From a virus (Duplodnaviria; Caudoviricetes), in IMG/VR virus record IMGVR_UViG_3300020049_006862, positions 46,205 to 110,204 of that record: a stretch of DNA of 64,000 nt; one strand, written 5' to 3'. The position numbers and the translations under genes were made by a program. The notes beneath the pieces were generated by a model. That model did not search any database. It worked only from the letters and a program-made list of their open reading frames with translations, and had not been told where the DNA came from. How positions within the stretch are numbered: the first letter of the stretch is position 1; every line of letters starts with the position of its first letter. Below are positions 12,001 to 58,136 of this stretch, in pieces.

Positions 12001-14324
12001 AAGTTTTGAAGCTCTTCATTAGATAGTTCCCCAAGCATAATATTACCATTAGTAGGATCTAGTGCTTGTTCTAACAAAGCGTTGTCTAATGCTGCTTGAC
12101 CAACTATTCTACCAGTTTCTTTCAGAATGGATTTAGTAGATCTAACAACAGCAGATTCTCTCGCTTCATACGAAGGAAAGGAATTTGAGATAGCACTTAT
12201 ACCTATTCCTAAGTCTGGAGGATAATTAATTTCAGACGTACCTTTAGTGGCGGCCTCTTCGAGTAAGAGATAATCTATATCTTTACGTCTAGACTCTTCC
12301 TCTATGGTTTTATCTGTTTTAGCATCTAACTTCAAACCTTCGTTTAGCAAAGAAAACGTAGGCATCATCTCTTTCTCAAAAGCTTTTTTGAAGGCCTCGT
12401 AATTCTTACCATCATCTATGCTACTTAAAAGTTCAGTAGCTTCTTGGCGAAGAAGATCAGCTTGCTCTCCTTGAACTCCTTCTAATGAAGCAAGTTTAGC
12501 TTTGGTATAGAATCTGTTTCTACGCAAGAAGGGAACAAATTTTTTAGACACTGCGTCATCGCTGATTTGATCTCTAGTCATACGAGAAGAGTCATCGTAG
12601 TAGTCTTCAATAAATTGATTTGCCAAATCCGGATTCTCTTTGATAAACCCTTCAATACCTAACTGCTTAGCAGTTTCGCCGTTAATAACCCCATCATACT
12701 GTATCAAATCTTGAAGATCTTCTTTCGAAAGTCCTCTTGAGGCAAGTCTATGAATATGAGCCGCAAGCATCATTTTTTTGCTGAAGTCCGCGTGAACAAC
12801 GTCGCCTTTAGACATAGCAAGATAAAACTCGTTAACTAACTTATTATTAGTTAGTGTAGCAATAACTGCCTCATTTACTTTAGCTGGATCTCTTTCTAAT
12901 TCGCCATTAGTATTTAAAAATTGAGGAGTTTTAGTACCGTCTGGTAAATCAGTAACACCAAAAGTTTTAAAGTCGTGGCCGAAGTCCTCAGTCATAAGAT
13001 TCTTAGAAACTTCGTTCTGACCTTTAAGAGTATTCCACTGTTTTTCAAATTGATTGACATTAGTCTTGAGTTTCTCGTTATCCCAACGAGTTTTCATCAG
13101 ACCCATACCACCACCAATCATACCGCCAAGCATAATAGCAGAAGCCGCTTCATCTTCAGCGCTTCCAGCAGGTGCAGCATAGCCTCCTAAAGTGGTCATA
13201 GCTTTTACAAAGTTGGCTGCATTTTTTCCAGCCTGGACTAAAGGTCCACTTACTGAGCCGTATTCTTTAGCATTACCTGAAGCAACTCTTTTCTCCCAGC
13301 TTTGAACTGCGCTTTGAATATTTTCTTCCCAAAGACCTTCTGAAGCAATGCCCATCCCAAAATTCTTAAGATAGCTTTCTGCGTTTGCTTTGTAAAGTTC
13401 TGAAGCAGACTTACCTTCTCTACGTGTTTGATCCCTTAGGGTCTTAACTTGATCTTTAGAGGCCCCATGAAAAATCTTCGATTGAAGAAAGTTTGGAGCA
13501 GTAAGAGCAATTAAGTTCCAGTTGTAAACACGAGCTGCGCCTTCTCCAGCTTTCATCTTCAATTGTTCCTGAACCTCAGGCGGAGCAGAAGCAAAAGAAT
13601 TAAATCCTGCTGTTTTAGCGTATTCTTCTTTTAAAGTGTCAAAAGCTTCTTTGCCTTCAGCGCCAGCTTCACTCATTGTGTTATAGACCGTAGTCAAAGC
13701 TGTCTGAGTATTTAGACCTGTAGCTGTATTTACTTTAGTAAGAACATCGGCTAACTTTTTACCTTGTCCCATACCGTTAAGTAACTTGGTAGCAGACCCT
13801 ACTTTAGCAGTCAATGTGGAAGGAACATAAGCAGAAGCTAAGAAAGCTAAGGCATCATACCCATCTCTAGCCCAAAACTCTGCAGTTCCTGCACGCTCTA
13901 AGAAGTTACCTTCAGCATATTGCCTAGAAATATGTACTGGAGCTGAATCTTTAATTCCTTGTTCTAAAGAATTAAAAGCATTCACTATCCCATTATCTCA
14001 AATATCATTTACTTTTCCTGGACCCATTGCCCATAGAGCGCCGCCTACATAACCTAGACCGGCACCTACTTTTGGCAGTATAGAAAGGCCTGCAGAAAAC
14101 AAGCCATTCACATGTTTCTTAAGAGCTGACTGTTGCTGTCCTCGATAGTACATTTGTTCTATCTCAGGACTTAACAATGAACCTTCGTAGACTGCGGAAG
14201 AGATTCCCTTATCATACTTTCCCAATTGTCTAAGCGGAGAGAATCCTGTGCGTTGGGCAGCTACATTAGTTGTGGGTCTAAGGCCAGATAAACCCTGGCC
14301 CGGACCTCCATTATTTTGTGTCAT
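1..14324 (-). CDS. Giant virion protein (>4770 aa, truncated at window edge): SF1 helicase-like domain + zincin motif + crAss-type virion RNA polymerase
   Basis: ORFs 13998..14324 and 7284..13985 join through in-frame TGAs at 13998, 7284, 7179 and 7113; the frame then appears open to position 1. Motifs: GVLGSGKTS / IVIDEA / AIGDPSQQ / YTAIGRA (~9820-10665), HELTH (6846-6860), GSDFDVD (DFDVD at 2067-2081, in frame). Confidence 0.88.
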
Positions 14325-18523: not shown

Positions 18524-21500
18524 TATCTATCGGTATATGAGAAGGAGATGCCCATGATCTCCGTATTAAGTTTATAGTTCTCAGGCTGCTCAAAGTAAAG
18601 CCTACAAATTAAGAAGTAATCTTTAAGTCTAGCGATTTCAAACTGACTAGTAGTAAGATCAGTATTAACTGGTATCTTATCTATAAAGTAATCCTGAGAT
18701 ATATCTGCCCAAGCAGAAGAATTAAGTGGGCCTGTATTATTGTGGTAATCTCTAAACATCGAAATGTTCCAATGATTAACCACTTTACGGGCAACAGCTT
18801 CTCCAGGTATTGCTGTAACAAACGAAAAAGGATTTGAATTAGTCTTTGTTGTTACGTCAATAAACCCCGTAGACTGGTACGTATTGTATGCCCACAATTT
18901 ATTTCAAGTTCTATCTACTATCTTACCGTTAAGGTATACTTGAGTGGGTATATCCAAAGCTGCATACTTCTTAAGTGTTCCTGGATCTTTAGCCGAAACG
19001 AATTCAACTACGTGAGGGTACTTAGTTAAGTAGTAAGTTTGATATGGTCCAAAGTTGTGAGTATAGATGCTATCCTTTGCTGAATAAAAGTTTATGTGCG
19101 AATTAAACAGATAGAATGGCAGGTAAGAGTGAAACGACGTTCATTTACCAAGGACAAAACTATATGAAATAGTGAAGCTTTTATTCTCAAAATAATTAGT
19201 ATCAGTGAAGGGTCTATATGTCTTTCCCCCTGAAGCGTTAGTAGTATAGAATCTTTCTCCATCCCATTGTACTCCATTGATTGGTAAATAATCTTTCTTG
19301 TGAAGTACATATTTTCGCAGCTGAGGGTCATAGCAAGCTGTGAATCCTATACCATTAATATCAGATGTACTCTTAATAGGATATTCAGTCTGGTAATTAA
19401 GTAACATATACTTCTCCATCTGAAGAGGAAGATTCTCTTTGAAGAACTGTCTCATCCCTTTGTTGGATATTTCTTCTAACTTGTCAGAAAGATGAAAGAT
19501 CTTTCCAGAGTCAGCAGAAGTATAGACTGTGCCGAATTCTGTTGAGATAAGAGAGAATCTTTCCTTGCCGCCGCCATAATAATAATCAGGTGTAGCAATT
19601 CTTCGTGGAGGAATTGAGAATACCTCGGCTGCCCCAACATATACTGATGCTTCAGAAGAGTTAAGTACTTGTGGATTAGTAGGCACTAAGTACACTGCAC
19701 CAGAAGTCTTAGCATAGAGATTATCCTTGTCAGTGAACAACTCATTAATAGGACCATCAAACGCCGTGAGGTCTACAAAGTTATTTGTCTTTATTCTTTT
19801 GTACGAATCAAGAGAAGAGTCTTGAAAAGCTTTCTCTGATACGTAGATCCTGAAAGGATAAGAGTTGATACATGATCGACAATAGTCGTACGCAAGGGGT
19901 ATCGTAAATCCGGTTTTCTCTATCGCAATCTTAGATAAATCATCATTATAAAGATAAGCTTCTAAGCAAATAGGGTTTTTAACTGTTCAAACATCTGAGC
20001 TAACTTGATCTGCACTTTTGTCTCGAAGGTATTCGATCAAGGTGCCCGTATGTGTATCATTGGTCGGAGAATAGGCAAGATCACAATCATTGCCTGGATA
20101 TCTAAGTTCATAGTTTATTTGTGATTCTACATAAATATTATCGTACATAGATCCGTACAATATTCTATTATTACCTTGTTCATCTATATCTGCAAGATCT
20201 ACTACTCTAAAGTTAGATATGAAAATATCACCACCATAGTATTCTTGTGAATCCGTTAGAGTTCTAAAGTTAGATTCTATCGGAACATAATTAAGAAGAG
20301 TAAACATAGGGTAATCAAAAAGTAGTCTCTTATTTACTGCAAGATAGTGTCGAGCATCAAAATCATAATCATTTAGGGAATGAACAAATGCGTAAGCGTT
20401 TACTTTATTAAAGTAGGATTCATTGGTAAGCTTGTATATGAAGTCTCCAGTAGGAGCCTGCTGACTTCTTGCAGATACAAAGATACTCTCTGTATAGGGC
20501 ATATACAAGTCTTGAGGCAAAGTAAAGTTAATATTAAAGTCCATAACCTTTGCTCTATACCTAAGTTCTCCTCCACCATCCCTGTCATACTCACCTTGTT
20601 TTAAACTTGAAGGTACATTTTCGTATCTAGCAACCATCTCAAAATAAGAACCGTTCAGGTATCTAGATGCTAGTGTTTTAGGAGACAAGAAGTTACCGTA
20701 TTCGATAGGAATATCACCTTCATCTAGAGTTTTGAAAATCAGATTATTCGTATTTCCTCCTGAACCAGCAGTAAAGTATCCAGAGATAACACCCATATCT
20801 AAAGTAGAAGAGTTAGCTTCGGTTCTTCTTGCTACATAAAACCTATGCCCAACGACATCAGTAGAGGGGTAGGTTATGTTCGCAAACTCTAAACCAATGA
20901 GAGTAATCTCTCCGTCTCTGTAAAGTTCTACTAACCTTCTTGAAGGAGTTTTATGATATCTAACTTTACCAGTAGGGAATATCCTGACATTATCACAATC
21001 CAAAGTAGAAGGATAATCTTGGCGAGATTCAAAATAGCCTAACTTACCTGTAGCATATGCGCTGTTATATATCTGCCAGTATTCATACGAAGTAGCAGAA
21101 GGGAGATGCTGCATATCTAGGTTGAGAGGATCATACGTAAGTACTACCCTGTCAATCAAGTCCGCCTCTCTTCCTGGAACATGAAACAGTGGGCTAAATG
21201 TTCCGTTAGCAAATATATACTGTATCGCTACTGCGTACACTTCGTCAGAAGCAAAGCTTTGTTTGTAAAAAGTAGTTAATGGGTTCTTTGAATTCCCTAA
21301 AGTAGTAGTGCTTTCGACTATTACATCAGAAGTAACAAACTCACTAGTGATATTGTTCGCTGATCTTTGAAATTCAGCATAGTCGTAGAAGTCCGATTCA
21401 AGGTTTGCGACGTAAAGTCTACCGCCTGATTGCTCATGCGCAACTACTCTTTCGAGTACTGGAGAATCAATAACTACATCTTGAACATCTATCTGAATAG

Positions 21501-43700: not shown

Positions 43701-45818
43701 CGATAAGAAGGGCCCAATGTGTTAAGCCTAATGTACCAGTGATCGCAGTTACTTTACGATTGTTAACGTTTTCACGAGAGAAGAAGATATCCATCAGATA
43801 ATCTTTCAAGCGAGAAACAGTCAAAGCAGAATTGTAATATTCGCAATTATTATTATTCAGTTAGAGTCGTTAATTCTAACTCGGGAATGGTTACCCAGCT
43901 CATAGTTTCCTATGAGATTAGACTATATCATTTTCCTGTAGATGTTTATCTAAGGAAATTTCTCATTTCGAGTCACTTGACTCTACTCCCTTTCGGGATA
44001 GTCGTTGAAGGTTCCAATCATAAATTTTTTCTATATGCTTAAGAAAATCTTTAGGAGATTTAGTATACTTAGCTAGATTACAGTTTTGACAACAAGGTAC
44101 TACATTATCTTGTATGTATCCTAAATTGTTGTCAAGTCTATCTATTCCAGTATAATTATAGGTCATTAGTGATGTTCTAATACAGGTATTAGTTGGTTTA
44201 TCTCCACAGTATACACAAGAAGACGAAAACAATTTCGCTGCCTCCTCTAATGATAACGTAAATTCTAAACCTCTGTTTTTAGCACTTTTCCTATATCTAC
44301 AATATATAGTAGAATATTTTTCAGCACTGTTCATCTTTTGATCTCTTAAGAAGTCGTATCTACATTTTTGACATCCTGCAAAGCCTAGCTTTGCTAATGA
44401 CATACACGCTCTTGAAACAAAAGTAGTCGGGCCTTTAGCTGTATTTCCACAAGAACATTTTAGTATATATTGTCCTTTGTGACCTATTACAGTAAATTCA
44501 CCTATTTTAGTGCCTATTGGATATTTCATAATTTATTTTTTAGCTTCCCTGCTGATTGCCCCTATTTTTAGAATTGTTACAGTTTATTGTATCTAAAACT
44601 TAGCGGGGGGTCCCAGCAATTAGAGAAATTATTCGATTACTATTACTAGTAAAAGGGACCAAATATTAATCCAAGAATCTTTAAGTTGTTCGCGTACACC
44701 TGGCAGTGTGTTGTTCCCTTTCGTTCGTTAAACGAAAGGCGTACTATCCAACTTTAAATAGTACTGCCTTATATTACTATAAGGATCAGGTCATATCACC
44801 TTCCTATTAGGAAGTTTCCCGTTTCGGATTCACTTGAATCCTACGCCATAAAGGCTGACCGTCGAACGTTCCCTTTTCAGGGCTTCGCTGCTGATTGTCC
44901 TCTTCATAAGAAGTAGGAGATCCCAGACAATTAGAGAAATTTGCAATATTGTATTACTACAATATGGGGCCCAATTTGACCCGTTTTGATCCAGTAGCCT
45001 GACTGCGAAGGACGAGTTTGCTTGATACCTAACCAACCTTGATATTCCTGAGACATGTACATTTCAGAGTACATGCGAGATTCAGCCATAGGAAGGAAAG
45101 AGTTAACTTTCTTCATCTTCTGAGTGTGAGGATCAGTGTACAGGAATTCTACGCCCAATCGGCCGCCTTCTCTCCAAGCTTTGTCAGTGATCGTCAGTTT
45201 CTGAGCGAATTCACCAATTTGGCTTTCCAGTTTGAACAGGTTAGGAGATTGTTGTGTACCGAAGTATGGGTTAGCTTCTTGCTGAACAGAGGTCCATCCT
45301 TTAGAAAATTCACGACCTACTTCCAAAAGTGAAGGAGGGCAGAAAACTGTAGGATTGTCACCTTGCAGTTCGAGGGTGTAGATGTAACCTGTGCCATCTG
45401 GAACAGAATCACCGATGATAGCCATCGGGTAAGAGTTATCTTCACCAAGCAGAACATCTGGTTGTGCGTAATAGTCGATGTCCAATTTTACACGGAAACG
45501 TGTATTGTTTAAGCCCGGAGCGTCGTTGCCTGCTTCGAGATTCTCGAGAACAATAGCAATACGTTCTTCAGCTCCCTGCATAGTCCAGCGGAACACATCG
45601 CTGTTGATCATTTGAACATTGCCTGGGTTGATACCTTGAGCAGTCAGCAATTTACCTGTGAACAGGTCTGACTGAGAAGAATAAATTTTTGTGAGGGTGC
45701 CCATGAATTCATGCGGCTTGCCCGTGTCATAAGCAGCGCCAAGATAATTGGAGTCGATAAAATTACCCCCAAATCCTTGGTAGTGCTTGATAATCATGTT
45801 ACTTCTAGCGCTAGCCAT
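40706..45818 (-). CDS. Major capsid protein, six exons (489 aa spliced)
   Basis: Exons 45818-44979, 44703-44669, 43843-43725, 42929-42802, 41903-41580, 40729-40706 sum to 1470 nt, in frame: KTG|PGVREQLKDSWI|EYYN...GTLGS|IMFH...THY|YGPEG...TRCG|ELIYDFD*. Confidence 0.88.
40730..41579 (-). mobile_element. Group I intron 5 of MCP (850 nt)
   Basis: 5' exon ends in U, intron ends in G; P7 GCATA/TATGC; candidate internal guide AATTT-GCCTCAG lies near the 3' end of the ORF. Confidence 0.8.
40865..41551 (-). CDS. Intron-encoded HNH homing endonuclease
   Basis: CSCG, CSYCG, NGVDRIDSSKGY...NVAPSCKFCNRAK. Confidence 0.85.
   Translation of the reverse strand: MLKLKKQPKNFVESEMYNTTDYKEFIGLKYNELTVLSFPGYTLKKDKLKDYKIPVVEVKCSCGTIFKVQWDAVKNLKSKSCGHIHKFYYTDPYDCDVRGLYVRYRARAKKDNREFTITQDEFRSLIVSPCSYCGIKPSQIHRKTNCQASIPHNGVDRIDSSKGYVQGNVAPSCKFCNRAKSNSSLEEFNNYIIRLMKFASVKNRAKTVNGEIPNTVLSSEITKGSETV
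41904..42801 (-). mobile_element. Group I intron 4 of MCP (898 nt)
   Basis: P1 CACTAT/GTAGTG with U.G; TTGCTGGGA...CAATCAGCAG core; P7 GACTA/TAGTC; terminal G. Confidence 0.85.
41984..42664 (-). CDS. Intron-encoded LAGLIDADG homing endonuclease (226 aa, code 4)
   Basis: SMILGDG and LAI-W(TGA)-YMDDG motifs; second TGA near 42206; stop TAA inside the intron core. Confidence 0.85.
42930..43724 (-). mobile_element. Group I intron 3 of MCP (795 nt)
   Basis: P1 GGCT/GGCC; CTGCTGGGA...CAATCAGCAA core; P7 GATCA/TGATC; terminal G. Confidence 0.85.
42991..43617 (-). CDS. Intron-encoded HNH homing endonuclease (208 aa, code 4)
   Basis: N-terminal extension LGKLTI...GT-W(TGA)-EVQCSCG; CLYCG, NGVDRMDN, CCNVCNYMK. 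Confidence 0.85.
43844..44668 (-). mobile_element. Group I intron 2 of MCP (825 nt)
   Basis: P1 GGAT/GTCC; TTGCTGGGA...CAATCAGCAG core; P7 GACTA/TAGTC; terminal G. Confidence 0.85.
43918..44529 (-). CDS. Intron-encoded HNH homing endonuclease
   Basis: CSCG, CVYCG, GIDRLDNNLGY...NVVPCCQNCNLAK; ends at 43963 (TGA) or 43918 under code 4. Confidence 0.85.
44704..44978 (-). mobile_element. Group I intron 1 of MCP, ORF-less (275 nt)
   Basis: P1 GGGT/GCCC; TTGTCTGGGA...CAATCAGCAG core; P7 GGTCA/TGACC; terminal G. Confidence 0.85.
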
Positions 45819-49222: not shown

Positions 49223-52200
49223 CTATAAAAAATTGTCACTCGTTATACGAGCGTTCGGGAATACGAATTTATTAGCCGATATAAACTTGGTGATATCATC
49301 CACAATTTTACTATCTTCTATAATTGTTTTCTTGTATTGATTATGGGTTTCTATTAACCCTACAATACACCCCATGAATCCCATTATGGAGTCAAAGTTG
49401 CCTTCTAAATTAAAGGCAGCCATTTCTTGTAACAAGGCCCTGTCTCAGATAAAATCTATATTTCTATATGTTCTATCGTCCCTCTCAAACTTAACTTCAA
49501 GTAGCCAGTCGCGTATGTACTGAATGCCTTCCATCTTCATAACTCTAGAAGACATCGGATAACCATAAGTTACCGAAGGCCCGGTCATAAAAGATGCTTT
49601 CTTATTAAAGATAGTAGTAGGTTGTTTACAAAGCAAGTCTAACCTCTTTATCTTTTCGAAATACTCCTTCACGTTACCACGAACATTTTCGAAGTAGATC
49701 TTTGCGTTACCATAAAACAAAGAAAGCTTGTGAAGTATATCGTTCACTATATGCCTTCCCGCGTAGGGCCTACCTCTATATACTGCAACCAATTCAGCCG
49801 AGCCAATCGTAGAGGCGTACTTCTCCGTCTTAAGAACAAAGATAGTACCTAACGAAGAGCCTGAAGCATCATCACTTGCGTAAGGGTCATGCCCAATGAT
49901 ATAAGCTCCTGGAGGAACTTTACCGTCGATAACTTGAGGAAATTCGTAAACAACAACGCAACCTTCGCGGTTGTCAGTATTCTTGATAGGAAATGAGTTA
50001 ATCGGCTTAAGCTCGTTAGTAACATCTATCTTATAATCAACACCATTAGTGTCTTTTGCTTCTGGGTTAAAGAAGAGAGTAACTCTCTTCTCCATCAAGT
50101 TTAGAGAATCGGCGATATCAATCTGGTCAAGCCTTGCTCGTACTTCTGCTGTTGGAAATATATTACCTGAAGCAGAGAGAAACATTTCTGATGGAGTGAG
50201 AGGTCTGTTAATAATCTCAGCATCGAGTGCTACTGAAGCATTCTTTGCCTTCTTAAGTTTTGTTCTGTGAGCTTCCAAAAATCCCCTAGCAACTTCTACA
50301 TCAGTAAAGCCATTCTCATCTTTGAATTCATTCAAGCCAAGATAAGCAGGTACAAAGTACCCAATGGGGGAAGATCTCCATTCGTATAAATCGGGAAATT
50401 CTAAGCAATCGTAAGTCTCTGGATTGAAGAATATTTTTTGAGCGGCTAGGGTACCGCCCCCTGCCATATCCCCACCAGTTCCGATGAACATCATCGAACC
50501 AAACTTACGAGCACCATCTCTTTGAGTCTCTACGCAAGCTGCGTAAGTCTCTTCTAAGTTGTCAAAAAACCCTACCTCCTCAAACAGCAAAACCCCTGGT
50601 CGCGTACCATTGGCAGCGAAGGGGTTATCTTTGAAAGTTCTATTCTTAATAGTGGATTGAGAACCTACTCTTTTCCAAACTCCACCTACCTTTTTTGGAT
50701 AGTGAGCTTTTATTTCTTTACCTGGATCAAAAGATCCGGCCCATTTCTTTGCGAATGGTGCGGGGTAAGTTTTCTTTCCTATTTGACTAGTTCCCGGAAG
50801 GTTATCGAGAGCAATCTTAGTTTTTTGTAAAGTTTCTGAAGAGTATTTGGATTCGGCTGCACCGACTACTATTTCAGAAGTAAGAATAAATTCTGGATTT
50901 ATTTCGTATTTGACAGCTCCGTCAAATAGAAATTCGTGAGCGACTATACCAACACCAAGAGAATAAGATTTACCTAGCCGAAGCCCCTACTGTTCCCGGT
51001 CATCGTATAGTCTCTTAAACAATACGAATGATCTTGATCGGTTTCCACTCCATAATATGGAGCGTCAGTTGAGGCTTCGATTCTTAAACTTGATATTTTA
51101 TAATTCTTAACAGGATTAAAATCAGTTTTTTTCCTGTGAATTTGAACTGGTATCTTATTAATATCTCCAGATATTGTAATTGAATATTCTTTAGTGTTAT
51201 GTCTTTTACGATATTTAAAATTCGTATGAAACCCTAAAGAATTAGCTAATTCTTGAACTTGCTTAGCAAATCTTCCGTCTGCTTGATAAAATCTATATGC
51301 AGATATATCTAAAGTACCGTCAGTATCTAATAACCCTGCCAAAAGTTTCATTCTAACTTCTATCGAGTTGTTTAGGTATTCTTCAGGTATATGTTTATTG
51401 CCTAAAACTCTTAAACTTTTCAAAGAGTCAATAATATAATTCTTATCTTTTATAATATTTACTTTATAATTAGAAGAATTGGCATTTGACGAATAATTAT
51501 TCGAATACATAGATAATTTCCCCCCTATCTCATCTGCATATCTAGATAAGAAATACACAATTTCAATATCGGAAGTCGTAATAATCCTACTGTCTCTGTG
51601 CCCGTCTCCAAGCCATATACCTAAAAAATAAGGATCAAGAGGCACTTCTTGGTAAGGTAAGTCTACAGCATCTCTTTTAAATCCTTTATACCTGTTATTA
51701 AAGTGTTCAGTACATATACTGTTCTGTATCTCAAAGAGCTTCTCAGCTTTTATCTTTGTTCTTTTTCCTTTATCGAGAATTTCTAGCTCATGATCATGCG
51801 TAACGCTATAATCATCACCATTTGATTGACATACTCTATACATCCTAGCTTGTGGTCCACGAATTGTTCTTTTTACAATTCTAGGAACATCGTCTATACC
51901 CATTAATTCGTCCCCAATATTTATATCCTCAATGTTTTTGATACTGTTGTCGAACATGCGGACTTGAGTACCAATAGGATGACAGCCAAGCATCATCATG
52001 TTCTTGGCATCATTATTAAACAGAGGGTAACCAAGTGGCTGTTCTCTAAGCATCCGAAGATTTTCTCGAGCAGGAATATACCTTTTAAGTAATCCATTTT
52101 CAGGATTAATAGCATCAGGATATTCTTTAAGAACTGCTGCCGGGGGCTCAGTAATACCTAAGGCTTCCATCTCTTCTACGAAGCGCAAAGAGGTGAATTG

Positions 52201-52497
52201 GGTGTCTTCGGAAAACGACGAAAAGCCGCGAGCCTCGGCCCAATTGTAGAATAACTCCCACTCAAGGTCACGAAGATCCGGCTTTCCGAAGTACGGGCTA
52301 CGCCCGCGCTCTTTTCGTTTAATAGTTCCAAAATTAATATAGAAGTAAAGTTTACCCGGCATATATCTGCCGTGTGCCCAATGACCTTCTATACATCTCT
52401 TTTTTTGTTCCCGCCAAAAGGAAACAAAAGCAGGAGATAATGGATGATAGTTTGGTATGTCAACAATAAACTCACGAGGATTAATACTCGTAATCAT
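49223..52497 (-). CDS. terL: Terminase large subunit with intein, a frame break at Walker A, and one TGA
   Basis: N-terminal FWREQKKRCIEG / LYFYINFG; G|intein|SRGFG then TAG 50974; GKSY resumes in another frame; LFEEVG, IGTGG, IIGHDPY, YFEN, GNFD; TGA at 49445. Confidence 0.85.
50992..51984 (-). mobile_element. Intein with LAGLIDADG endonuclease (331 aa)
   Basis: Starts CHPIGT, has VTHDH block B, FLGIWLGDG and LLAGLLDTDG, ends TGN followed by Ser. Confidence 0.9.
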
Positions 52498-54100
52498 TAT
52501 TTTCTTCAACATATGGCGCTTCTCCAGAGGATATAATTCCATCTGTGAGCGCGATCATTGACGCTACTGAAGCAGCATTTTCCAAAGCTAATCGCAATAC
52601 CTTAGTAGGATCAATGACTCTACAGTCTTTAACATCTACATATTCCATTTTATTCACATCGAATAATTCGTTGTGAGTTTGGATGTGGTTACGAACTACT
52701 TCAGAGTTAACACCAGCATTAGCAAGTACGGTATTGAAAACACTTACAAGAGCTTTTTTAACACAATCAGCTCCAGCTTGTAAGACAGGTTCAACATCGA
52801 TAGCTGAAATAGCGTCGAGGTAAGAATACCCGCCGCCAATCGAAACACCTTCTGTAATTGCAGCTTTTGTTGCTTGCAGCGCATCGTCTACCCTATCTTT
52901 CTTTTCTTTTAGCTCTACTTCTGTATGAGCACCAAGGTTGATAACAGCAACTCCACCTGAAAGTTTTGCGATACGCTCAAGAAGTTTTTCTTGAACCCAT
53001 GCAAATTCGTTATGAGAAGCAGTTTCTAACTCAGCTTTCAAATTATCTAATCTCTTAGAAATAACTTCTTCAGCGCCTTTTCCACCGACAATACTCGTCT
53101 CGGAACGGCTTACTGAAACATTTGTTGCGCGGCCAAGATGTTTAAGTTCTACATCTTTAACTAACATTCCGGAATCCTCTGAAATCAAAGTTGCACCAGT
53201 CACGGCAGCGATGTCTTCTAACATTGACAATCGGCGATCACCTTGCGCTGGAGTTTTTACCGCACATATATTTAGACCCATTCGTACTTTATTGACTACC
53301 AGTAGGGAAAGTGCTTGCGCCTCTACTTCATCTGCTATAATTAGCATCTGACCTCCTGCCTGTACTACCTTTTCAACGATAGGCACAATTTCAGCTCCTA
53401 CGCGAAGTTTACGATCTGTTACGAAAATGTAAGGATTTTCTAGTTCGCATGTGAGCTTATCAAAATTATTTACGAAATGTGGAGATATCAATCCTCTGTC
53501 GAATGAATATCCTTTGGTTGTAGAAATATAATCTACAGTTCCTTTAGAATCTGCTACTGCTACCATGCCGGTAGTTCCTACTTCCTCCATTGCCTTACGA
53601 ATAAGCGCAGCAATAGCAGGATCGTTATTAGCAGATATATTTGCAATTTGTTCTACCTTGTCCATATCATTTCCGATAGAGGTAGAATTTGCTTTTAGAA
53701 ACTCGACCACTTGAGTTGTGGCGATGTCGATGCCTCTTTTTAAGTTAATGGGTGAGACTCCCATTTCAATTTGCTTTAGTGCGTTATCCAAAATCGCTTG
53801 AGCAAGAACTAAGGAAGTGGTTGTTCCATCTCCTACAGTTAATACAGTTCTAGCAGCAGCTTGAAGAGCCATTTGAGCTCCTAAGTTTTGTGCTGGATCT
53901 TTTAGCGAAATATGTTTAGCTACTGTTACGCCGTCTTTGGTCACATAAGGTGTGCCGAAAGAAGTGCGAAGTACTACGTTTCTTCCCTTTGGGCCTAAGG
54001 TAATCTTTACCATATTAGCCATCTGATCGACACCTTCTTTCAAAAGTTTGCGAGCAGCAGAAGAAGAATACAAGTTTGTTGCTTCTCTGATTGGTACCAT
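52481..54100 (-). CDS. groL: Phage chaperonin GroEL
   Basis: TLGPKGRNV, VTKDGVTVA, GDGTTT, ISANND, ERIAKLSGGVAVI, KKDRVDDAL, VIDP. Confidence 0.97.
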   Translation of the reverse strand: MVPIREATNLYSSSAARKLLKEGVDQMANMVKITLGPKGRNVVLRTSFGTPYVTKDGVTVAKHISLKDPAQNLGAQMALQAAARTVLTVGDGTTTSLVLAQAILDNALKQIEMGVSPINLKRGIDIATTQVVEFLKANSTSIGNDMDKVEQIANISANNDPAIAALIRKAMEEVGTTGMVAVADSKGTVDYISTTKGYSFDRGLISPHFVNNFDKLTCELENPYIFVTDRKLRVGAEIVPIVEKVVQAGGQMLIIADEVEAQALSLLVVNKVRMGLNICAVKTPAQGDRRLSMLEDIAAVTGATLISEDSGMLVKDVELKHLGRATNVSVSRSETSIVGGKGAEEVISKRLDNLKAELETASHNEFAWVQEKLLERIAKLSGGVAVINLGAHTEVELKEKKDRVDDALQATKAAITEGVSIGGGYSYLDAISAIDVEPVLQAGADCVKKALVSVFNTVLANAGVNSEVVRNHIQTHNELFDVNKMEYVDVKDCRVIDPTKVLRLALENAASVASMIALTDGIISSGEAPYVEENNDYEY

Positions 54101-54252
54101 TATTCTGTTTTAAAAATTTCACTCTTTGTAATATCTCCGCTTAGCCCCATTTTTAGATATGTATATGCTTGCATTATCTTTCGTAAGCTATCGAAATCAT
54201 CTGTTAAAGTAATGGCATCTTTGCCATAAGTTACTACAATTGTAGCATCCAT
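54100..54252 (-). CDS. Small hypothetical protein (50 aa)
   Basis: MDATIVVTYGK...FKTE with a TAATG overlap onto groEL. Confidence 0.5.
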   Translation of the reverse strand: MDATIVVTYGKDAITLTDDFDSLRKIMQAYTYLKMGLSGDITKSEIFKTE

Positions 54253-54268
54253 TTAAAAATTAATTTAG

Positions 54269-54724
54269 TGGACATGAAGGGAGTTGAACCCTTGTATCTC
54301 ATATAATCTAATAATATATGTTTATAGGTTTAGGTCGAGAAGTATAGAGCAGGATTCGAACCTGCAGTCAGCATTTATCAAGGTGTTCCTACTATCCTTG
54401 TTTATGCACTGACGCCCTCGGTTATTAGGGCGTGTACACCATGTTCCACCTCCTATACTTCTACCACAATTTAAAAAAGGAGTGTACCGAAGCACACATC
54501 TCCACCACCCTATTTTGCTTAGAATAGGGAAACTAGCGTATGTATAATCAATCTATTTCTGTTTCGAGGTTAGACAACCCAAACTGTTCTCGAATAAGAG
54601 AACGAGTAAGACGAATACGAATATTTGCCGTTTGTTGTTCAATAGACATTGATAAGTCACTATACTATTATCGTGACACCTAAAATATATCCTCAACCAT
54701 ATAAGTCGATTCCATTACATGCCC
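54269..54724 (-). ncRNA. ssrA: tmRNA
   Basis: 5' GGGCATGTAATGGAATCGAC; 3' AAGGGTTCAACTCCCTT-CATGTCC-A; acceptor stem with G3.U; helix 2 CTTATAT/ATATGAG; pseudoknot GTCAC/GTGAC + GATAA/TTATC; candidate tag frame 54629-54570; CCA not encoded. Confidence 0.85.
54338..54462 (-). ncRNA. tRNA-like cloverleaf nested inside the tmRNA gene
   Basis: AGAA-GTATAGG/TCTATAC-TTCT stem, D arm GTG-GAACATGGTGTA-CAC, GCCCT/AGGGC arm with 8-nt loop, long variable arm, T arm GCAGG-TTCGAAT-CCTGC. Confidence 0.75.
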
Positions 54725-54848
54725 ATATTATAGAGAACGCTAGTGGCAAAGCTAACAGGACACCGGTCTTCTGCGCCCACTGTGGGGGATTCCTATCTTT
54801 CGATGTTCTCTATTTTTCTTTAAAAGAGTAGGGACTCGATCTCAGCAG

Positions 54849-54936
54849 ATATAGTCGAGTGAGCCCCTCCCTTTATCCCAATCCGGAAACCATATATTGC
54901 TATAAGGCTTCCGGCATGTTTAAACATAATTCTTTT
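54849..54936. repeat. Inverted repeat copy 1 (88 bp, exact)
   Basis: Exact reverse complement of 63913..64000. Confidence 0.95.
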
Positions 54937-55121
54937 TCTAACTCTTCAAGCAAAATAGCCAAAGTAGCTGGATGTAAAATAATCATTATTTTTTAATTTT
55001 TTTGAAGTGCAGACTCCCTTAAATACCATAAGCAAAAAAAGAGGAGCCTGCCCTCGATTAGATAAAAACAGATGAAGCCCCCTAAGACAATGGTTACTTA
55101 TCCAGAGGGACTTCACTGCTT

Positions 55122-55223
55122 TGGCACGTCACATAGGAATCGAACCCATATAGTCTAGCGGTTGGAATGCTAGCGCGTACTGTTTTGAAGACAGTTCCCG
55201 TTCCGTAACGGTTAAAGTGACGT
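55122..55223 (-). tRNA. tRNA with UCA anticodon (opal decoder), long variable arm
   Basis: ACGTCAC/GTGACGT-G-CCA; ACTGT-CT-TCA-AA-ACAGT; T arm ATGGG-TTCGATT-CCTAT; D arm CCGTT-ACGG-AACGG. Confidence 0.9.
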
Positions 55224-55235
55224 ATTTTAATTGTC

Positions 55236-55295
55236 GGATTGAGGGAGTCGAACCCTTTATACTGCGCCTCCCGTTTATAGGGTAGCAATCAATCC
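55236..55295 (-). ncRNA. Truncated tRNA-like element
   Basis: GGATTG/CAATCC stem plus AGGG-TTCGACT-CCCT T arm and one central hairpin; no D arm, no CCA. Confidence 0.5.
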
Positions 55296-55306
55296 TTCCT
55301 AAATTC

Positions 55307-55501
55307 TTAACTCCACATATTAAACCTACTGACAGCTGCCGATGGCCCCATCTCTTTAATAGTTTTTTCCATTAAAGTCATAAACTTAACCAGGTCCCAA
55401 TCTTTAGATTCCATTCGAAATGAGATTTCACAGCTCATTGTTGGAATGCGTCCTTGCATTGGTTCGCTGTCTAGTAAGACAGTTGATTTTAAATCGTTCA
55501 T
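55307..55501 (-). CDS. Hypothetical protein (64 aa)
   Basis: ORF with A-rich leader. Confidence 0.55.
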   Translation of the reverse strand: MNDLKSTVLLDSEPMQGRIPTMSCEISFRMESKDWDLVKFMTLMEKTIKEMGPSAAVSRFNMWS

Positions 55502-55594
55502 TGTTTATTTTTTCTTTCATAGGCAGAAGCAGACTTTATGGGGAGCCTCTTGTTTAAGTATCTACGCCCGACAGATTACCCTAAGAAATATTGT

Positions 55595-56074
55595 TTAAAT
55601 TAATCCCGAATCAGAAAGAGACTCAGGTTCTCCGCCTTCTAAAGACGATTCTTCTCCTTCCACTAAAGCAAGGAGGGAAAGATACATTTTATCTATCTTA
55701 TCAGATCCTAAGAGGATCTTATCACACATCTCGTACGTGTCCTCATTATAAGGAGTCTGATCTAAAAACTCGTTGCGCTGCTCTATCTTCTTCTCGATGG
55801 GAATAAGATACTTTCTTTTCTTAGAAAGTATGAGCGAAGTTAGCTTGGTCATCTCAGCTTTTTGTTCGTCAACTTCCGGATTAAATTCTTGATCCGGCAT
55901 TATATCCCTAATCAAAATTGTCTTTTCCATAATAGTAGAATTATAGTAAATTGATTTAGGATGTAAGAAGAGAACATAAGACCACATCCGTGTAGATTCC
56001 GTTTTCGGGAATTCTAATCTGTAGGCTGGATACAATTCGAAAAAATCCTTAGTTGGATCTATTAGATCTATCAT
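55595..56074 (-). CDS. Hypothetical protein, candidate terminase small subunit
   Basis: 159 aa helical ORF upstream of terL; assignment by size and position only. Confidence 0.4.
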   Translation of the reverse strand: MIDLIDPTKDFFELYPAYRLEFPKTESTRMWSYVLFLHPKSIYYNSTIMEKTILIRDIMPDQEFNPEVDEQKAEMTKLTSLILSKKRKYLIPIEKKIEQRNEFLDQTPYNEDTYEMCDKILLGSDKIDKMYLSLLALVEGEESSLEGGEPESLSDSGLI

Positions 56075-56669
56075 ATTTCAGAGGGTCTAAGGAAAATGTT
56101 ATTGTACCGGAGGGCACGGATTCGGTACAGTGAATACCGAAAGAATAAGCGCGAGTAAGTAAATCGTCGTTAAACAGAAGAAAGTCATTAGCAATACTGA
56201 TGCTATATTTATCTTCGGTCTTGATAAGAACAAACTTTTGGTCGGAAGTATTAGCTTCCGATAGGAGCTTGTGAAGAATGAGATTACATTCTTGGTAGTA
56301 GGTATCGATATTGTCTGTGACCTGAGAAAGGTCGAAACCGCGTTGAATGTCATCTTTCGAAGGTAATTGAGTTACACCAGGAAGAACCTGATCAGCGAAA
56401 GCCATAGCATTTTTGTATTCGTCGGTTTTTTTATACTCTTCCCATTCTGGAGAAGAGAGCATTTTATCGAACCTGTGGCGGGAATCTATTTTGCCAGGAG
56501 CATAGAATAAATTGGGAGTATGACATCCGCAAGATAAACACTTGTTATTAAGAAGGCAATCGTAGCACAGAATTGATCTGAATACGGCTTGTTCTTTTAT
56601 GTAAGGTTCTGCTCCTAACTTATAGTTTAGATTACCTTGAACAAAATTTACTACGTCTTTAGCTGTCAT
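56049..56669 (-). CDS. Putative Zn-binding protein (206 aa)
   Basis: CYDC...CLSCGC motif. Confidence 0.55.
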   Translation of the reverse strand: MTAKDVVNFVQGNLNYKLGAEPYIKEQAVFRSILCYDCLLNNKCLSCGCHTPNLFYAPGKIDSRHRFDKMLSSPEWEEYKKTDEYKNAMAFADQVLPGVTQLPSKDDIQRGFDLSQVTDNIDTYYQECNLILHKLLSEANTSDQKFVLIKTEDKYSISIANDFLLFNDDLLTRAYSFGIHCTESVPSGTITFSLDPLKYDRSNRSN

Positions 56670-56672
56670 TTC

Positions 56673-56987
56673 TTAGCCTTTGTTCTTCAGGATGTCGATA
56701 ATGCCTTTTACGAAATTGAACAATTTCGAAGCATTAGTAAGAGCCCACCAAAAAGTAATTTTAGTAGGGAATTCTAGCGTAGCCATCAATTCTGTGATCT
56801 CACGTACAATGGCTTGAATTTTTTCTTTAAGAGTCTCGTTCTCCGCTTTCAGAGAAGAGACTGTTTTAGTAAGATAAGTATTCTGTTCAGTTAGGAACAG
56901 AACTTTCTTCTGAGCCTGCGCAGCTTCCTGCTCAGCTCCTAATACCAAAGCATCAGGTGCTTTAGCTTTATTTTTGTTCTGACTCAT
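56673..56987 (-). CDS. Coiled-coil protein with amphipathic C-terminus (104 aa)
   Basis: Intact ORF coupled to neighbours. Confidence 0.55.
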   Translation of the reverse strand: MSQNKNKAKAPDALVLGAEQEAAQAQKKVLFLTEQNTYLTKTVSSLKAENETLKEKIQAIVREITELMATLEFPTKITFWWALTNASKLFNFVKGIIDILKNKG

Positions 56988-57363
56988 AGGTAACTAATTT
57001 TGCTTGAATTTGTGTTGGTGTTACAAGTACGTACCCTTCATGATCAGAATACGAGTTTTGTTTGTTGAGAAAAAATGCCTGTTCACGACCTTGATCTGTG
57101 ACAAGTACGAAATCTCCAATTTCTAGAGGCATAAATTCCTCTACTAAAGTTTTCGCAGATCGTTCAGATATCGCTACTATTTTGCCGATATTAGAGTATT
57201 CTCTATTTGAGAGAGGGGAGACAGGTCTACCTCCATCAGATACTCCGTTCTGATATTCAGGAATAATTAGTCCTCCGGCAGTTTTGGCAAGTGATAGCGG
57301 CTCCAATTTAAGAAGGATGCCACGCATCCCTAGAGGGATGTAATTATCTACTGTTAGTTGCAT
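56968..57363 (-). CDS. groS: GroES-like co-chaperonin (131 aa)
   Basis: PLG..ILLK, mobile-loop-like KTAGGLIIP, GKIVAI, LEIGDFVL; likely start MQLTV at 57363. Confidence 0.7.
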   Translation of the reverse strand: MQLTVDNYIPLGMRGILLKLEPLSLAKTAGGLIIPEYQNGVSDGGRPVSPLSNREYSNIGKIVAISERSAKTLVEEFMPLEIGDFVLVTDQGREQAFFLNKQNSYSDHEGYVLVTPTQIQAKLVTYESEQK

Positions 57364-57805
57364 ATTTAATACTTTTATACTTAGATAAGTGTTGAAAAAT
57401 ATGTTTCGGGATTTTTTTACTAGAAAGATCTTTTTGCGATCTTCTGTAAAAGTGAATCCACGCTTTGTGTCTGTTCTTAAATATGAACGAGACAAACCTC
57501 TTATGATCCTCAGAACCTAATCTGGCTTTTCTCAGAGCTTTTCTTATAAGAAAGAAGAATTTTCACGGAGATCTTATATGTATCCTACCTATTCTAGGTA
57601 AGTCTGCCGATAAGATTGAAAGATCTTCCATGCCCTCTCTAATTAGAGAGTAATGATGTTCAACGATAGAAGAGGCTAATTCCGGAGAAATGTTAAGCTT
57701 CTTTGCTATCTTCTGATATAGTTTCTTCTTCCTTACCTGGGTCGAACGAAAATACAAAAGAGAATGCTTTCTTGCTTTCATATGCTTGAGCGACTGAGTT
57801 TGCAA
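57344..57805 (-). CDS. HU/IHF-like DNA-binding protein (code 4, start uncertain)
   Basis: LYQKIAKKLNIS...LPRIGRIHI; continues through TGA 57563 to TAA 57344. Confidence 0.5.
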
Positions 57806-58136
57806 ATGCCTCTATTCTCGGGGCAGCGATTATTTCCGAATGCTCCTGACGTATAAGCCAAGTCTTCGCAATTAAGGAATAAAGTTTAGTCCTTATATTT
57901 GGAATCGACATTTCTTCTTCATAATCATGCTCGTACATCTGCTGTACTTCTAATCGAGCTAGTCGAGAGAACCTCTGGTGATTAAACTTACGAGGAAGGG
58001 CAAAGAAGTATGAAAGCAGTAAAAGTTCAGAATCCGAAGGACGAAACCTAGACGGCATAGAGGCTGAGAAAATAGATAGAGCTCTCTTAATCGTCATCAC
58101 CTTAGAGGTCATACTAAAAGAGAACTGAGCTTTCAT
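57693..58136 (-). CDS. Hypothetical, possible winged-helix protein (147 aa)
   Basis: Intact ORF; LYSLIAKTWLIR segment. Confidence 0.5.
   Translation of the reverse strand: MKAQFSFSMTSKVMTIKRALSIFSASMPSRFRPSDSELLLLSYFFALPRKFNHQRFSRLARLEVQQMYEHDYEEEMSIPNIRTKLYSLIAKTWLIRQEHSEIIAAPRIEAFANSVAQAYESKKAFSFVFSFDPGKEEETISEDSKEA

Follow-up and report, generated by a model that had tools for sequence, protein, structure and literature searches.

Small structured RNAs crowded beside a chaperonin gene, in a phage that appears to read TGA as an amino acid, raise the question of whether these RNAs act together as a system for switching the genetic code. Such a cluster occupies about 1 kb (54269–55295, all elements on the minus strand) of a 64,000-nucleotide (nt) stretch, hereafter the window, which is the right-hand 64 kb of one 110,204-bp viral contig in IMG/VR. 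An initial annotation had read the cluster as a coordinated cassette, in which an opal tRNA, a transfer-messenger RNA (tmRNA), several smaller RNA elements and flanking chaperonin genes combine UGA suppression, rescue of ribosomes that run through host UGA stops and folding support; the co-orientation that it described within about 1 kb is correct. We consider it likely that these RNA genes form an island just upstream of GroEL in a crAss-like phage that recodes TGA to tryptophan (Trp); at its core would be an opal suppressor tRNA of Trp type, with the tmRNA as an accessory. Two side products stand out as the most interesting: the suppressor family has a second arm that resembles the anticodon arm of tRNA-Trp, and the tmRNA encloses a tRNA-like domain.

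Protein identities place the phage in a distant environmental lineage of the Crassvirales, bearing out the assignment made initially. Its TerL is 33% identical to that of Cellulophaga phage phi14:2 and its portal protein about 30% identical to those of gut crAss-like phages, with both proteins at 30–33% against known crAss phages. Many relatives are present in metagenomes, with portal proteins 40–66% identical, contigs of about 100 kb and the same GroEL–TerL–portal–capsid order. A near-identical relative was not found: exact DNA-pattern scans of IMG/VR for the 5′ end of the window tmRNA and for the window tRNA gave no match, and megablast against phage records gave none either. Across 50–58 kb of the window, all genes lie on the minus strand.

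TGA recoding and the UCA tRNA

Under the standard code, a single TGA separates 24 of the 37 pairs of adjacent same-frame open reading frames (ORFs), whereas reading TGA as sense (code 4) gives a compact gene map in which all ORFs end in TAA or TAG. The roughly 120 in-frame TGA codons are spread across dozens of phage genes, and replication genes use them as well as structural genes. When the window was compared with 87 related loci by tblastn, Trp stood opposite its in-frame TGA codons in 62 of 196 cases and Ser in 4, with the second commonest residue stemming from one site only. Conversely, the window residue opposite in-frame stops of the relatives, which were almost exclusively TGA, was Trp in 96 of 254 cases. 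These alignments make TGA as Trp (code 4) a well-supported reading for this phage, and recoding of this kind in crAss-like phages is an already published phenomenon (PMC7886860; bioRxiv 10.1101/2021.08.26.457843). We also considered, and dropped, a TGA-free block of standard code around the RNA cluster: in ORFs of at least 60 amino acids, TGA makes up 8 of the 45 Trp codons there, a share similar to the 21–27% elsewhere. When only ORFs of at least 120 amino acids were counted, the region contained 0 TGA and 19 TGG.

Two further stretches of the window change under code 4. A single 6,177-codon ORF with five in-frame TGA codons spans window positions 1–14324 (minus strand) and extends past the first base of the window (genome 41995–60528); its product is presumably the giant virion RNA polymerase/tail protein of crAss type. 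At 57347–57811 (minus strand), directly upstream of the GroES-like gene described below, one TGA joins two same-frame open stretches that may be a further recoded small gene missed under code 11.

The candidate reader of the TGA codons is a tRNA at 55122–55223 (minus strand), with the anticodon UCA in the loop CUUCAAA, a 7-bp acceptor stem with A1–U72, G73 and an encoded CCA, a 5-bp D-stem with a 4-nt D-loop, and a long extra (variable) arm. A covariance model made from six copies of the tRNA (R1) detects it with 87 bits and also finds it in at least 12 distinct TGA-recoded related lineages. Throughout this family the loop CUUCAAA is invariant, and G73 and A1(G1)–U72 are conserved. Covariation among 13 distinct sequences agrees with the proposed fold: 89.9% of cells were paired, compared with 61% in shuffles and about 40–47% with slid partners, changes on both sides occurred in 28 of 31 pairs, and on every measure all 500 shuffles stayed below the observed value. 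On the strength of the model score and this covariation, the unusual opal tRNA that had been picked out at first is a genuine member of a conserved family.

The distribution of the tRNA tracks the recoding. Every carrier of the UCA tRNA is a TGA-recoded locus, and the tRNA was absent from all 13 non-recoded loci in which 3 kb or more of sequence precedes GroEL as well as from five non-recoded genomes searched whole; its presence in recoded relatives and absence from non-recoded ones argue that it is an opal suppressor. The best match in the five non-recoded genomes was an ordinary tRNA-Trp(CCA); its anticodon arm, AUGGU-CUCCAAA-ACCAU, differs from the one in the suppressor of relative L007 only by C34U. 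Exceptions to the pattern are L004 and L056, which are TGA-recoded and contain only relics of the tRNA. With TGA aligned to Trp and the UCA tRNA following the recoding, UGA suppression is the part of the proposed code switch that held. The half-tRNA relics, at L004:5235–5325, L056:4633–4723 and L050:3184–3269, keep an extra arm with a CCA loop (see below), the T-arm and the G73–C end, have a different 5′ half and have lost the UCA loop.

In bacteria, the major identity elements for Trp are the anticodon, the first acceptor pair and G73 (PMC9976931), and the window tRNA carries the bacterial set of A1–U72 and G73–CCA; by these features we assign it as an opal suppressor of Trp type. Searches of the 110-kb contig with PF00579, PF00472 and PF01668 found no phage tryptophanyl-tRNA synthetase (TrpRS), release factor or SmpB, respectively. 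Host factors are therefore implied, and host TrpRS presumably charges the suppressor.

The combination of a long variable arm and G73 is also the identity set of seryl-tRNA synthetase (SerRS) (PMC5389517), and it raises a different possibility: that the UCA tRNA is charged by SerRS in the manner of allo-tRNAs or tRNA-Sec, or is itself a selenocysteine tRNA, in which case UGA would encode Ser or Sec. A Sec-like 5–6-bp D-stem with a 4-nt loop does occur in the copies of the window, L007 and L043, and family members give weak Rfam tRNA-Sec matches of 26–36 bits. However, the window tRNA, with 26.2 bits against a gathering score of 47 (RF01852), falls outside that family, and its acceptor/T geometry is 7/5, not 8/5. 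Most members of the suppressor family have an ordinary D-arm, about 120 TGA codons over dozens of genes are unlike the selenoprotein pattern, and the 62 alignments of TGA with Trp stand against only 4 with Ser.

What sets this tRNA apart is the loop of its extra arm. In 10 of the 11 long-arm members of the clade the loop holds U-CCA-A, mostly as the 7-nt GUCCAAA and, in the window, as UUCCAAC. A pattern scan of IMG/VR for CTTCAAA, GTCCAAA and a T-arm returned 30 loci against about 0.3 expected by chance (a rough estimate), many of them within ordinary tRNA arrays on 110–230-kb contigs. In an unbiased scan, the anticodon arm GGTCTTCAAAACC, a 20–45-nt spacer and a T-arm were the sole requirements; among the 56 distinct variable regions that it returned, 34 placed TCCAA in a hairpin loop, compared with about 2% by chance. 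The design is widespread in phages, with UCA tRNAs bearing the extra-arm loop xUCCAAx at window 55122–55223 and at loci L094–L177. In 13 of the tRNAs from the unbiased scan the loop is CUCCAAA, the canonical anticodon loop of tRNA-Trp. By a slightly different count, eight tRNAs contain the exact 13-mer GGTCTCCAAAACC, which is the suppressor's own anticodon arm with CCA replacing UCA. In L026 (5195–5332), a UCA tRNA has a variable region of about 60 nt from which the CCA loop is absent, possibly an insertion or an intron-like segment.

U72, G73 and a 7-bp acceptor stem are common to all 37 tRNAs with a TCCAA loop, whereas 18 of the 22 tRNAs without the loop show the one-base offset expected of genuine 8/5 tRNA-Sec. 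The extra arm therefore marks a distinct, Trp-type class of suppressors, with true 8/5 Sec-type tRNAs forming a separate class that does not have the loop, and we regard charging of the UCA tRNA with Ser or Sec as highly improbable. A description of the CCA loop in the extra arm was not found in the searchable literature, whose coverage is incomplete, so that novelty is not proven.

The extra arm may present the CCA identity triplet to TrpRS. Bacterial TyrRS, a paralogue of TrpRS, contacts the long variable arm of tRNA-Tyr, which makes a reading of the extra arm by TrpRS geometrically conceivable. Our more speculative proposal is a 'two-headed' tRNA, in which the true anticodon arm would read UGA and the extra arm, a retained or copied tRNA-Trp anticodon arm (loop xUCCAAx, and the exact 13-mer GGUCUCCAAAACC in eight cases), would engage host TrpRS. 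In this clade, the tRNA might be paired with a phage tmRNA that copes with the read-through it causes and from which an internal module is perhaps excised, giving a two-piece molecule. We offer this combined picture tentatively, as possible rather than probable; if it is true, the UCA tRNA would be charged efficiently with Trp without a phage synthetase.

The tmRNA and the module nested in it

The second main gene of the cluster is a tmRNA of 456 nt in one-piece order at 54269–54724 (minus strand). Rfam RF00023 matches it at full length (54266–54724, model positions 1–374) with 49.2 bits, the gathering score being 47. The 7-bp acceptor stem joins 5′ GGGCAUG to 3′ CAUGUCC and contains G3:U70, with A73 as the discriminator, from which we assign it alanine identity; CCA is unencoded (CUA follows). 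The unconstrained minimum free energy (MFE) fold pairs nt 1–7 with 449–455, forms helix 2 from nt 20–47 and 396–427, and includes the T-arm at nt 432–448. At about nt 47–92, a candidate pseudoknot 1 (PK1) can be read from the sequence as a GUCAC/GUGAC hairpin with GAUAA/UUAUC and AAUAG/CUAUU pairings. Two candidate tag frames follow, starting at nt 96 or 97 and encoding GKYSYSSYSFSYSRTVWVV-UAA or ANIRIRLTRSLIREQFGLSNLETEID-UGA. The motif AACAACAAAnGGCAAnUAUU is shared by the tmRNAs of the window and of L006; we rejected it as their common point of resumption, since it precedes the PK1-like structure in L006 and follows that structure in the window.

Between them, Rfam, ARAGORN and a structural search written for the purpose identify full-length one-piece tmRNAs in the window, L006 (of which L009 and L101 are the same contig), the L023 group, L027, L043 and L050; the tmRNAs of the relatives score 45.7–76 bits with Rfam. 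The tRNA-like domain of the window tmRNA is almost identical to that of L050, which points to a single tmRNA family. With a score above the Rfam gathering threshold, G3:U70, an intact fold and homologues in relatives, the tmRNA is as real as first supposed. The tags of the L023, L043 and L050 groups are homologous and long (DNS[YF]..AL..P.NST...QEVE......VYA before the stop), and the homologous L027 tag ends in YAYV; the tags of relatives that end in LVYA look like degrons. A tmRNA of a CPR (candidate phyla radiation) bacterium, L205, has a 22-amino-acid tag ending in PAPVYA, with the same C-terminal VYA as the L023, L043 and L050 phage tags. The 25-nt 3′ end of the window tmRNA also occurs in cellular tmRNA and tRNA-Ala genes; its matches are to Firmicutes and CPR tmRNA genes and to tRNA-Ala genes, not to Bacteroidota, and we discarded it as a clue to host or origin.

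Within the 3′ domain of the tmRNA lies a 125-nt tRNA-shaped module (54338–54462, minus strand; tmRNA nt 263–387). It forms a self-contained, cloverleaf-like domain in the MFE fold of the whole tmRNA and has a cloverleaf centroid and a folding z-score of −3.3, in agreement with the earlier call of a tRNA mimic nested in the tmRNA. The module consists of a 10-bp acceptor-like stem, a GCCCU/AGGGC arm with the 8-nt loop AAUAACCG, a long arm and the consensus T-arm GCAGGUUCGAAUCCUGC. It is absent from all other tmRNAs of the clade. Free-standing genes in L027 and L050 resemble the module in the acceptor start and D region (AGAAG..TATA..GAGGT.GAA) and in the GCCCU...AUA(A)CC...AGGG arm; the L027 gene lies 100 nt downstream of the L027 tmRNA. 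These genes (L027:4118–4231 and L050:4665–4769) are odd tRNA-like genes in their own right, with a 7-bp acceptor, a TATACAAGAGGT D region, a long arm, a consensus T-arm and a non-canonical anticodon-like loop. Inside the window tmRNA, just 5′ of the module, a consensus scan identified a terminator-like hairpin, GUGUGCUUCGGUACAC followed by UCCUUUUUU (54476–54497, minus strand). Because of the position of this hairpin, we speculate that tRNA-processing enzymes excise the module to leave a two-piece tmRNA.

The same features could be taken to mean that the tmRNA is a disrupted or relic gene, for example an ssrA copy with an inserted tRNA-like gene or the remnant of an attachment site, and that the cluster is a dumping ground for tRNA-derived sequences. 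The module looks foreign and exists as a separate gene in relatives, a terminator-like hairpin lies inside the tmRNA, its Rfam score is marginal, a decayed T-arm minihelix lies nearby, and the same island contains half-decayed tRNA relics in L004, L056 and L050. However, both halves of the tRNA-like domain, G3:U70, helix 2 and the PK1-like fold are intact and pair in the unconstrained fold, the tmRNA without the module is 331 nt long, a normal tmRNA size, and full-length tmRNAs have been kept in six lineages. No integrase turned up during annotation, which included no search aimed at integrases. A relic gene thus seems improbable to us.

The island and the proposed code switch

Between the tRNA and the tmRNA lie two pairs of stable hairpins. 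Two long hairpins directly 3′ of the tRNA (54990–55121, minus strand) fold with −51.4 kcal/mol (z −6.8), and the second of them, at 55034–55055, is terminator-like in the consensus scan (GAGGGCAGGCUCCUC followed by U7). Nearer the tmRNA, two strong hairpins at 54816–54925 (minus strand; −43 kcal/mol, z −5.1) end with CUCUUUU after the second. The presence of hairpins in the cassette is thus well founded, and they look like terminators or processing signals that would separate at least two transcription units. A junction RNA had also been proposed; here, directly 5′ of the tmRNA, we find a structured 91-nt leader (54725–54815, minus strand; z −2.4) closed by the 9-bp stem AUAGAGAAC/GUUCUCUAU, which we count among the weaker elements, no conservation being apparent. 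Between the tRNA unit and the tmRNA, a hypothetical 28-codon ORF (54900–54986, minus strand; translation MIILHPATLAILLEELEKELCLNMPEAL) may be no gene.

The proposed mini tRNA mimic (55235–55295, minus strand) is much weaker. It comprises a 7-bp helix, GGAUUGA/UCAAUCC, around a small hairpin and a T-arm; it has no G3:U70 and no anticodon arm, folds no better than shuffles (z −1.1), and fails a strict acceptor-plus-T-arm geometry test, with an acceptor helix that overlaps its own T-stem. A loose version of this detector did not discriminate, giving 10 matches in the window where random sequence gave 3.3 on average, and it missed the element, for which we therefore claim no significance. Its T-arm equals that of the tmRNA at 15 of 16 bases, and the element is probably a partial copy of the 3′ end of a tRNA or tmRNA. 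Four T-arms are the sole repeat family in the region; to that extent alone is the suggested repeat element borne out. Downstream of the L007 suppressor lie a T-arm minihelix (L007:2953–2990) and a tRNA-like RNA of about 115 nt (L007:2997–3110), and tRNA-derived elements recur across the clade in the island upstream of GroEL.

GroEL (Cpn60; 539 amino acids; 52481–54100, minus strand; Pfam PF00118, 2.1e-62) is encoded directly downstream of the RNA cluster without an in-frame TGA, and a 50-amino-acid ORF with no family match (54100–54252, minus strand) lies between it and the tmRNA. Its nearest homologues, about 49% identical, are from cellular Bacteroidota, and the long, high-scoring matches P0002 and P0003 were rejected as phage relatives because they are cellular groES–groEL operons. 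The cluster had been placed between groES and groEL. GroEL does adjoin it; the GroES candidate (131 amino acids; 56968–57363, minus strand) lies 1.7 kb upstream of the cluster, behind four ORFs (55307–56987). Three weak-to-moderate lines suggest that its product is a probable, divergent GroES-like co-chaperonin: Pfam Cpn10 (PF00166) at 18.5 bits against a cut-off of 21.1, PHROG GroES with an E value of 9.5e-4, and viral Cpn10 clusters of the ESM-Atlas at 0.94 with TM 0.60–0.67. A sequence search of the PDB gave no match for it.

GroEL is syntenic in recoded and non-recoded relatives alike, and the folding support proposed for the code switch is therefore untied from it. With terminator-like hairpins between tRNA and tmRNA and inside the tmRNA, a single co-transcript is not indicated. 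In a single co-regulated switch, tRNA, tmRNA, tRNA mimics and chaperonins would act together, and once the suppressor is expressed the tmRNA would rescue ribosomes that read through host UGA stops and tag their products. In its favour, every tmRNA lies 0.1–1.4 kb from a suppressor tRNA or a decayed copy of one (about six lineages), and the non-recoded genomes searched yielded no tmRNA, only T-arm fragments of 15–18 nt. The first stop of the candidate tags is UAA or UAG in six lineages, save in one of the two window frames, and an earlier paper (PMC7886860) had proposed that host stops are read through as a by-product of suppression. Against this, the tmRNA is absent from three TGA-recoded, suppressor-bearing relatives that are 99–100% complete, in a search whose positive control recovered five of five known tmRNAs, and no adjacent tmRNA was found beside about 22 other phage carriers of the same tRNA design. 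L050 shows the converse, a tmRNA retained with almost no in-frame TGA and a decayed tRNA. On the portal tree, the tmRNA carriers comprise one well-supported clade together with the window and L006 in an unresolved group, which amounts to only 2–3 independent events, and the order and spacing of suppressor and tmRNA vary among lineages, with four ORFs between them in L006.

Co-occurrence of all components with recoding thus fails for both the tmRNA and GroEL, and the obligatory, chaperonin-linked code-switch cassette does not hold. We judge a single co-regulated switch unlikely, and a functional link between the tmRNA and read-through possible but about as unlikely; rescue of ribosomes passing host UGA stops would be a plausible role. 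We treat the tmRNA as an accessory to a hot spot of RNA genes that lies upstream of GroEL, and as dispensable for recoding.

In the RNA-gene island that we favour, the suppressor tRNA, charged by host TrpRS, would let ribosomes read the in-frame TGA codons as Trp. The tmRNA, with host SmpB (which it would need), host alanyl-tRNA synthetase and EF-Tu, would release ribosomes that have stalled at the 3′ ends of mRNAs and attach a tag specified by the phage. The remaining elements would be the tRNA-like module in the tmRNA, a decayed T-arm minihelix and hairpins resembling terminators or processing signals. Several observations weigh against this account. The contig is 66% complete (CheckV), and a TrpRS, release factor or SmpB gene could sit on the missing part; the window tRNA is undetected by ARAGORN, which calls nothing anywhere in the window, and lies under the Rfam cut-offs, and its identity elements also suit SerRS, as discussed above. 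As for the tmRNA, its Rfam score is just 2 bits over the cut-off, its tag frame is ambiguous, and the nested module and internal terminator-like hairpin could compromise it.

Beyond the cluster, the contig contains further mobile and tRNA-like elements. A group I intron lies in the capsid-gene region (44767–44988, minus strand; Rfam 61.8 bits), and in relative L007 the matching region is interrupted by three group I introns that come with LAGLIDADG ORFs. The N-terminal part of TerL (50974–52542, minus strand) contains an intein with Hint and LAGLIDADG domains, and its C-terminal part is a separate ORF (49223–50590) with one in-frame TGA. Outside the window, the two tRNA calls, at genome positions 8416–8490 (+) and 21333–21410 (+), are a tRNA with anticodon ACA ('Cys') from ARAGORN at default settings and one with a four-base anticodon (tgaa) at relaxed settings. 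T-arm consensus elements lie at genome positions 17906 and 21386. Relaxed thresholds in ARAGORN give hundreds of false calls and were left out of the evidence, and weak Rfam matches (wcaG, miRNAs, plastid UTRs and CRISPR-DR) were dismissed as chance-level.

Comparison with known systems

Recoding of stop codons by phages in standard-code hosts is established, and Borges et al. describe the cellular mechanism of the code change as unresolved (bioRxiv 10.1101/2021.08.26.457843). The locus bears on how the host comes to charge and use the suppressor and on how the cell deals with genome-wide read-through. A class of suppressors with a second, Trp-anticodon-like arm could explain both the recruitment of TrpRS and why many suppressors are missed by standard tools. 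The repeated presence of a tmRNA beside the suppressor in one crAss-like clade makes management of read-through by phage trans-translation a testable idea. The tRNA design may also serve genetic-code-expansion work, which is already mining phage UCA tRNAs (PMC12636597).

Recoding of TGA to Trp through suppressor tRNAs has been described in crAss-like and other gut phages (PMC7886860; bioRxiv 10.1101/2021.08.26.457843). As in the code-4 recoding of crAss phages (Yutin et al. 2021; Borges et al. 2021/2022), in-frame TGA stands opposite Trp and the phage has a UCA tRNA, recoded and standard-code relatives are intermixed at short distances, and recoding and detectable suppressors are imperfectly matched. 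Unlike the published cases, the window represents an environmental lineage with 30–33% identity in TerL and portal and with TGA in replication genes too, and its suppressor carries a CCA loop on a long extra arm, escapes ARAGORN and lies beside a tmRNA; tmRNA is unmentioned in the searched text of those two sources. In TGA-recoded Jade phages, Borges et al. (Fig. S6; bioRxiv 10.1101/2021.08.26.457843) describe a 'code-change operon' of TrpRS, RF1 and tRNA-UCA, proposed to switch the infected cell to code 4. Translation components are clustered in the window as they are there, but no TrpRS or release factor was found here, and the partner is a tmRNA that is dispensable in relatives.

tmRNAs occur in huge phages (Al-Shayeb et al. 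2020, PMC7162821). The window tmRNA shares with these and with bacterial SsrA its one-piece order and its tRNA-Ala-like domain, which includes G3:U70; a candidate PK1, a candidate tag frame and a predicted reliance on SmpB would be further common traits. It differs from bacterial tmRNA in its 456 nt, with a complete tRNA-shaped module where PK2–PK4 normally sit, in candidate tags of 19–37 amino acids in the clade compared with about 10 in bacteria, in that a phage SmpB was not found in the contig, and in its unencoded CCA. With the two-piece permuted tmRNAs of alpha-proteobacteria and cyanobacteria it would have in common only the idea of two base-paired pieces after internal excision; its gene order is unpermuted, and Rfam tmRNA_permuted scores 14.2 bits against 47.

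The suppressor itself resembles bacterial tRNA-Sec, as well as the allo-tRNAs and selC-like tRNAs of Mukai et al. (2017, PMC5389517), in its UCA anticodon, long variable arm and G73, and in the long D-stem and 4-nt loop of some copies. It departs from them in a 7/5 geometry, rather than 8/4, 9/3 or 8/5, and in the Trp-type combination of A1–U72 with G73. Its variable-arm loop mimics the anticodon loop of tRNA-Trp, and the codon that it would serve is one that aligns with Trp.

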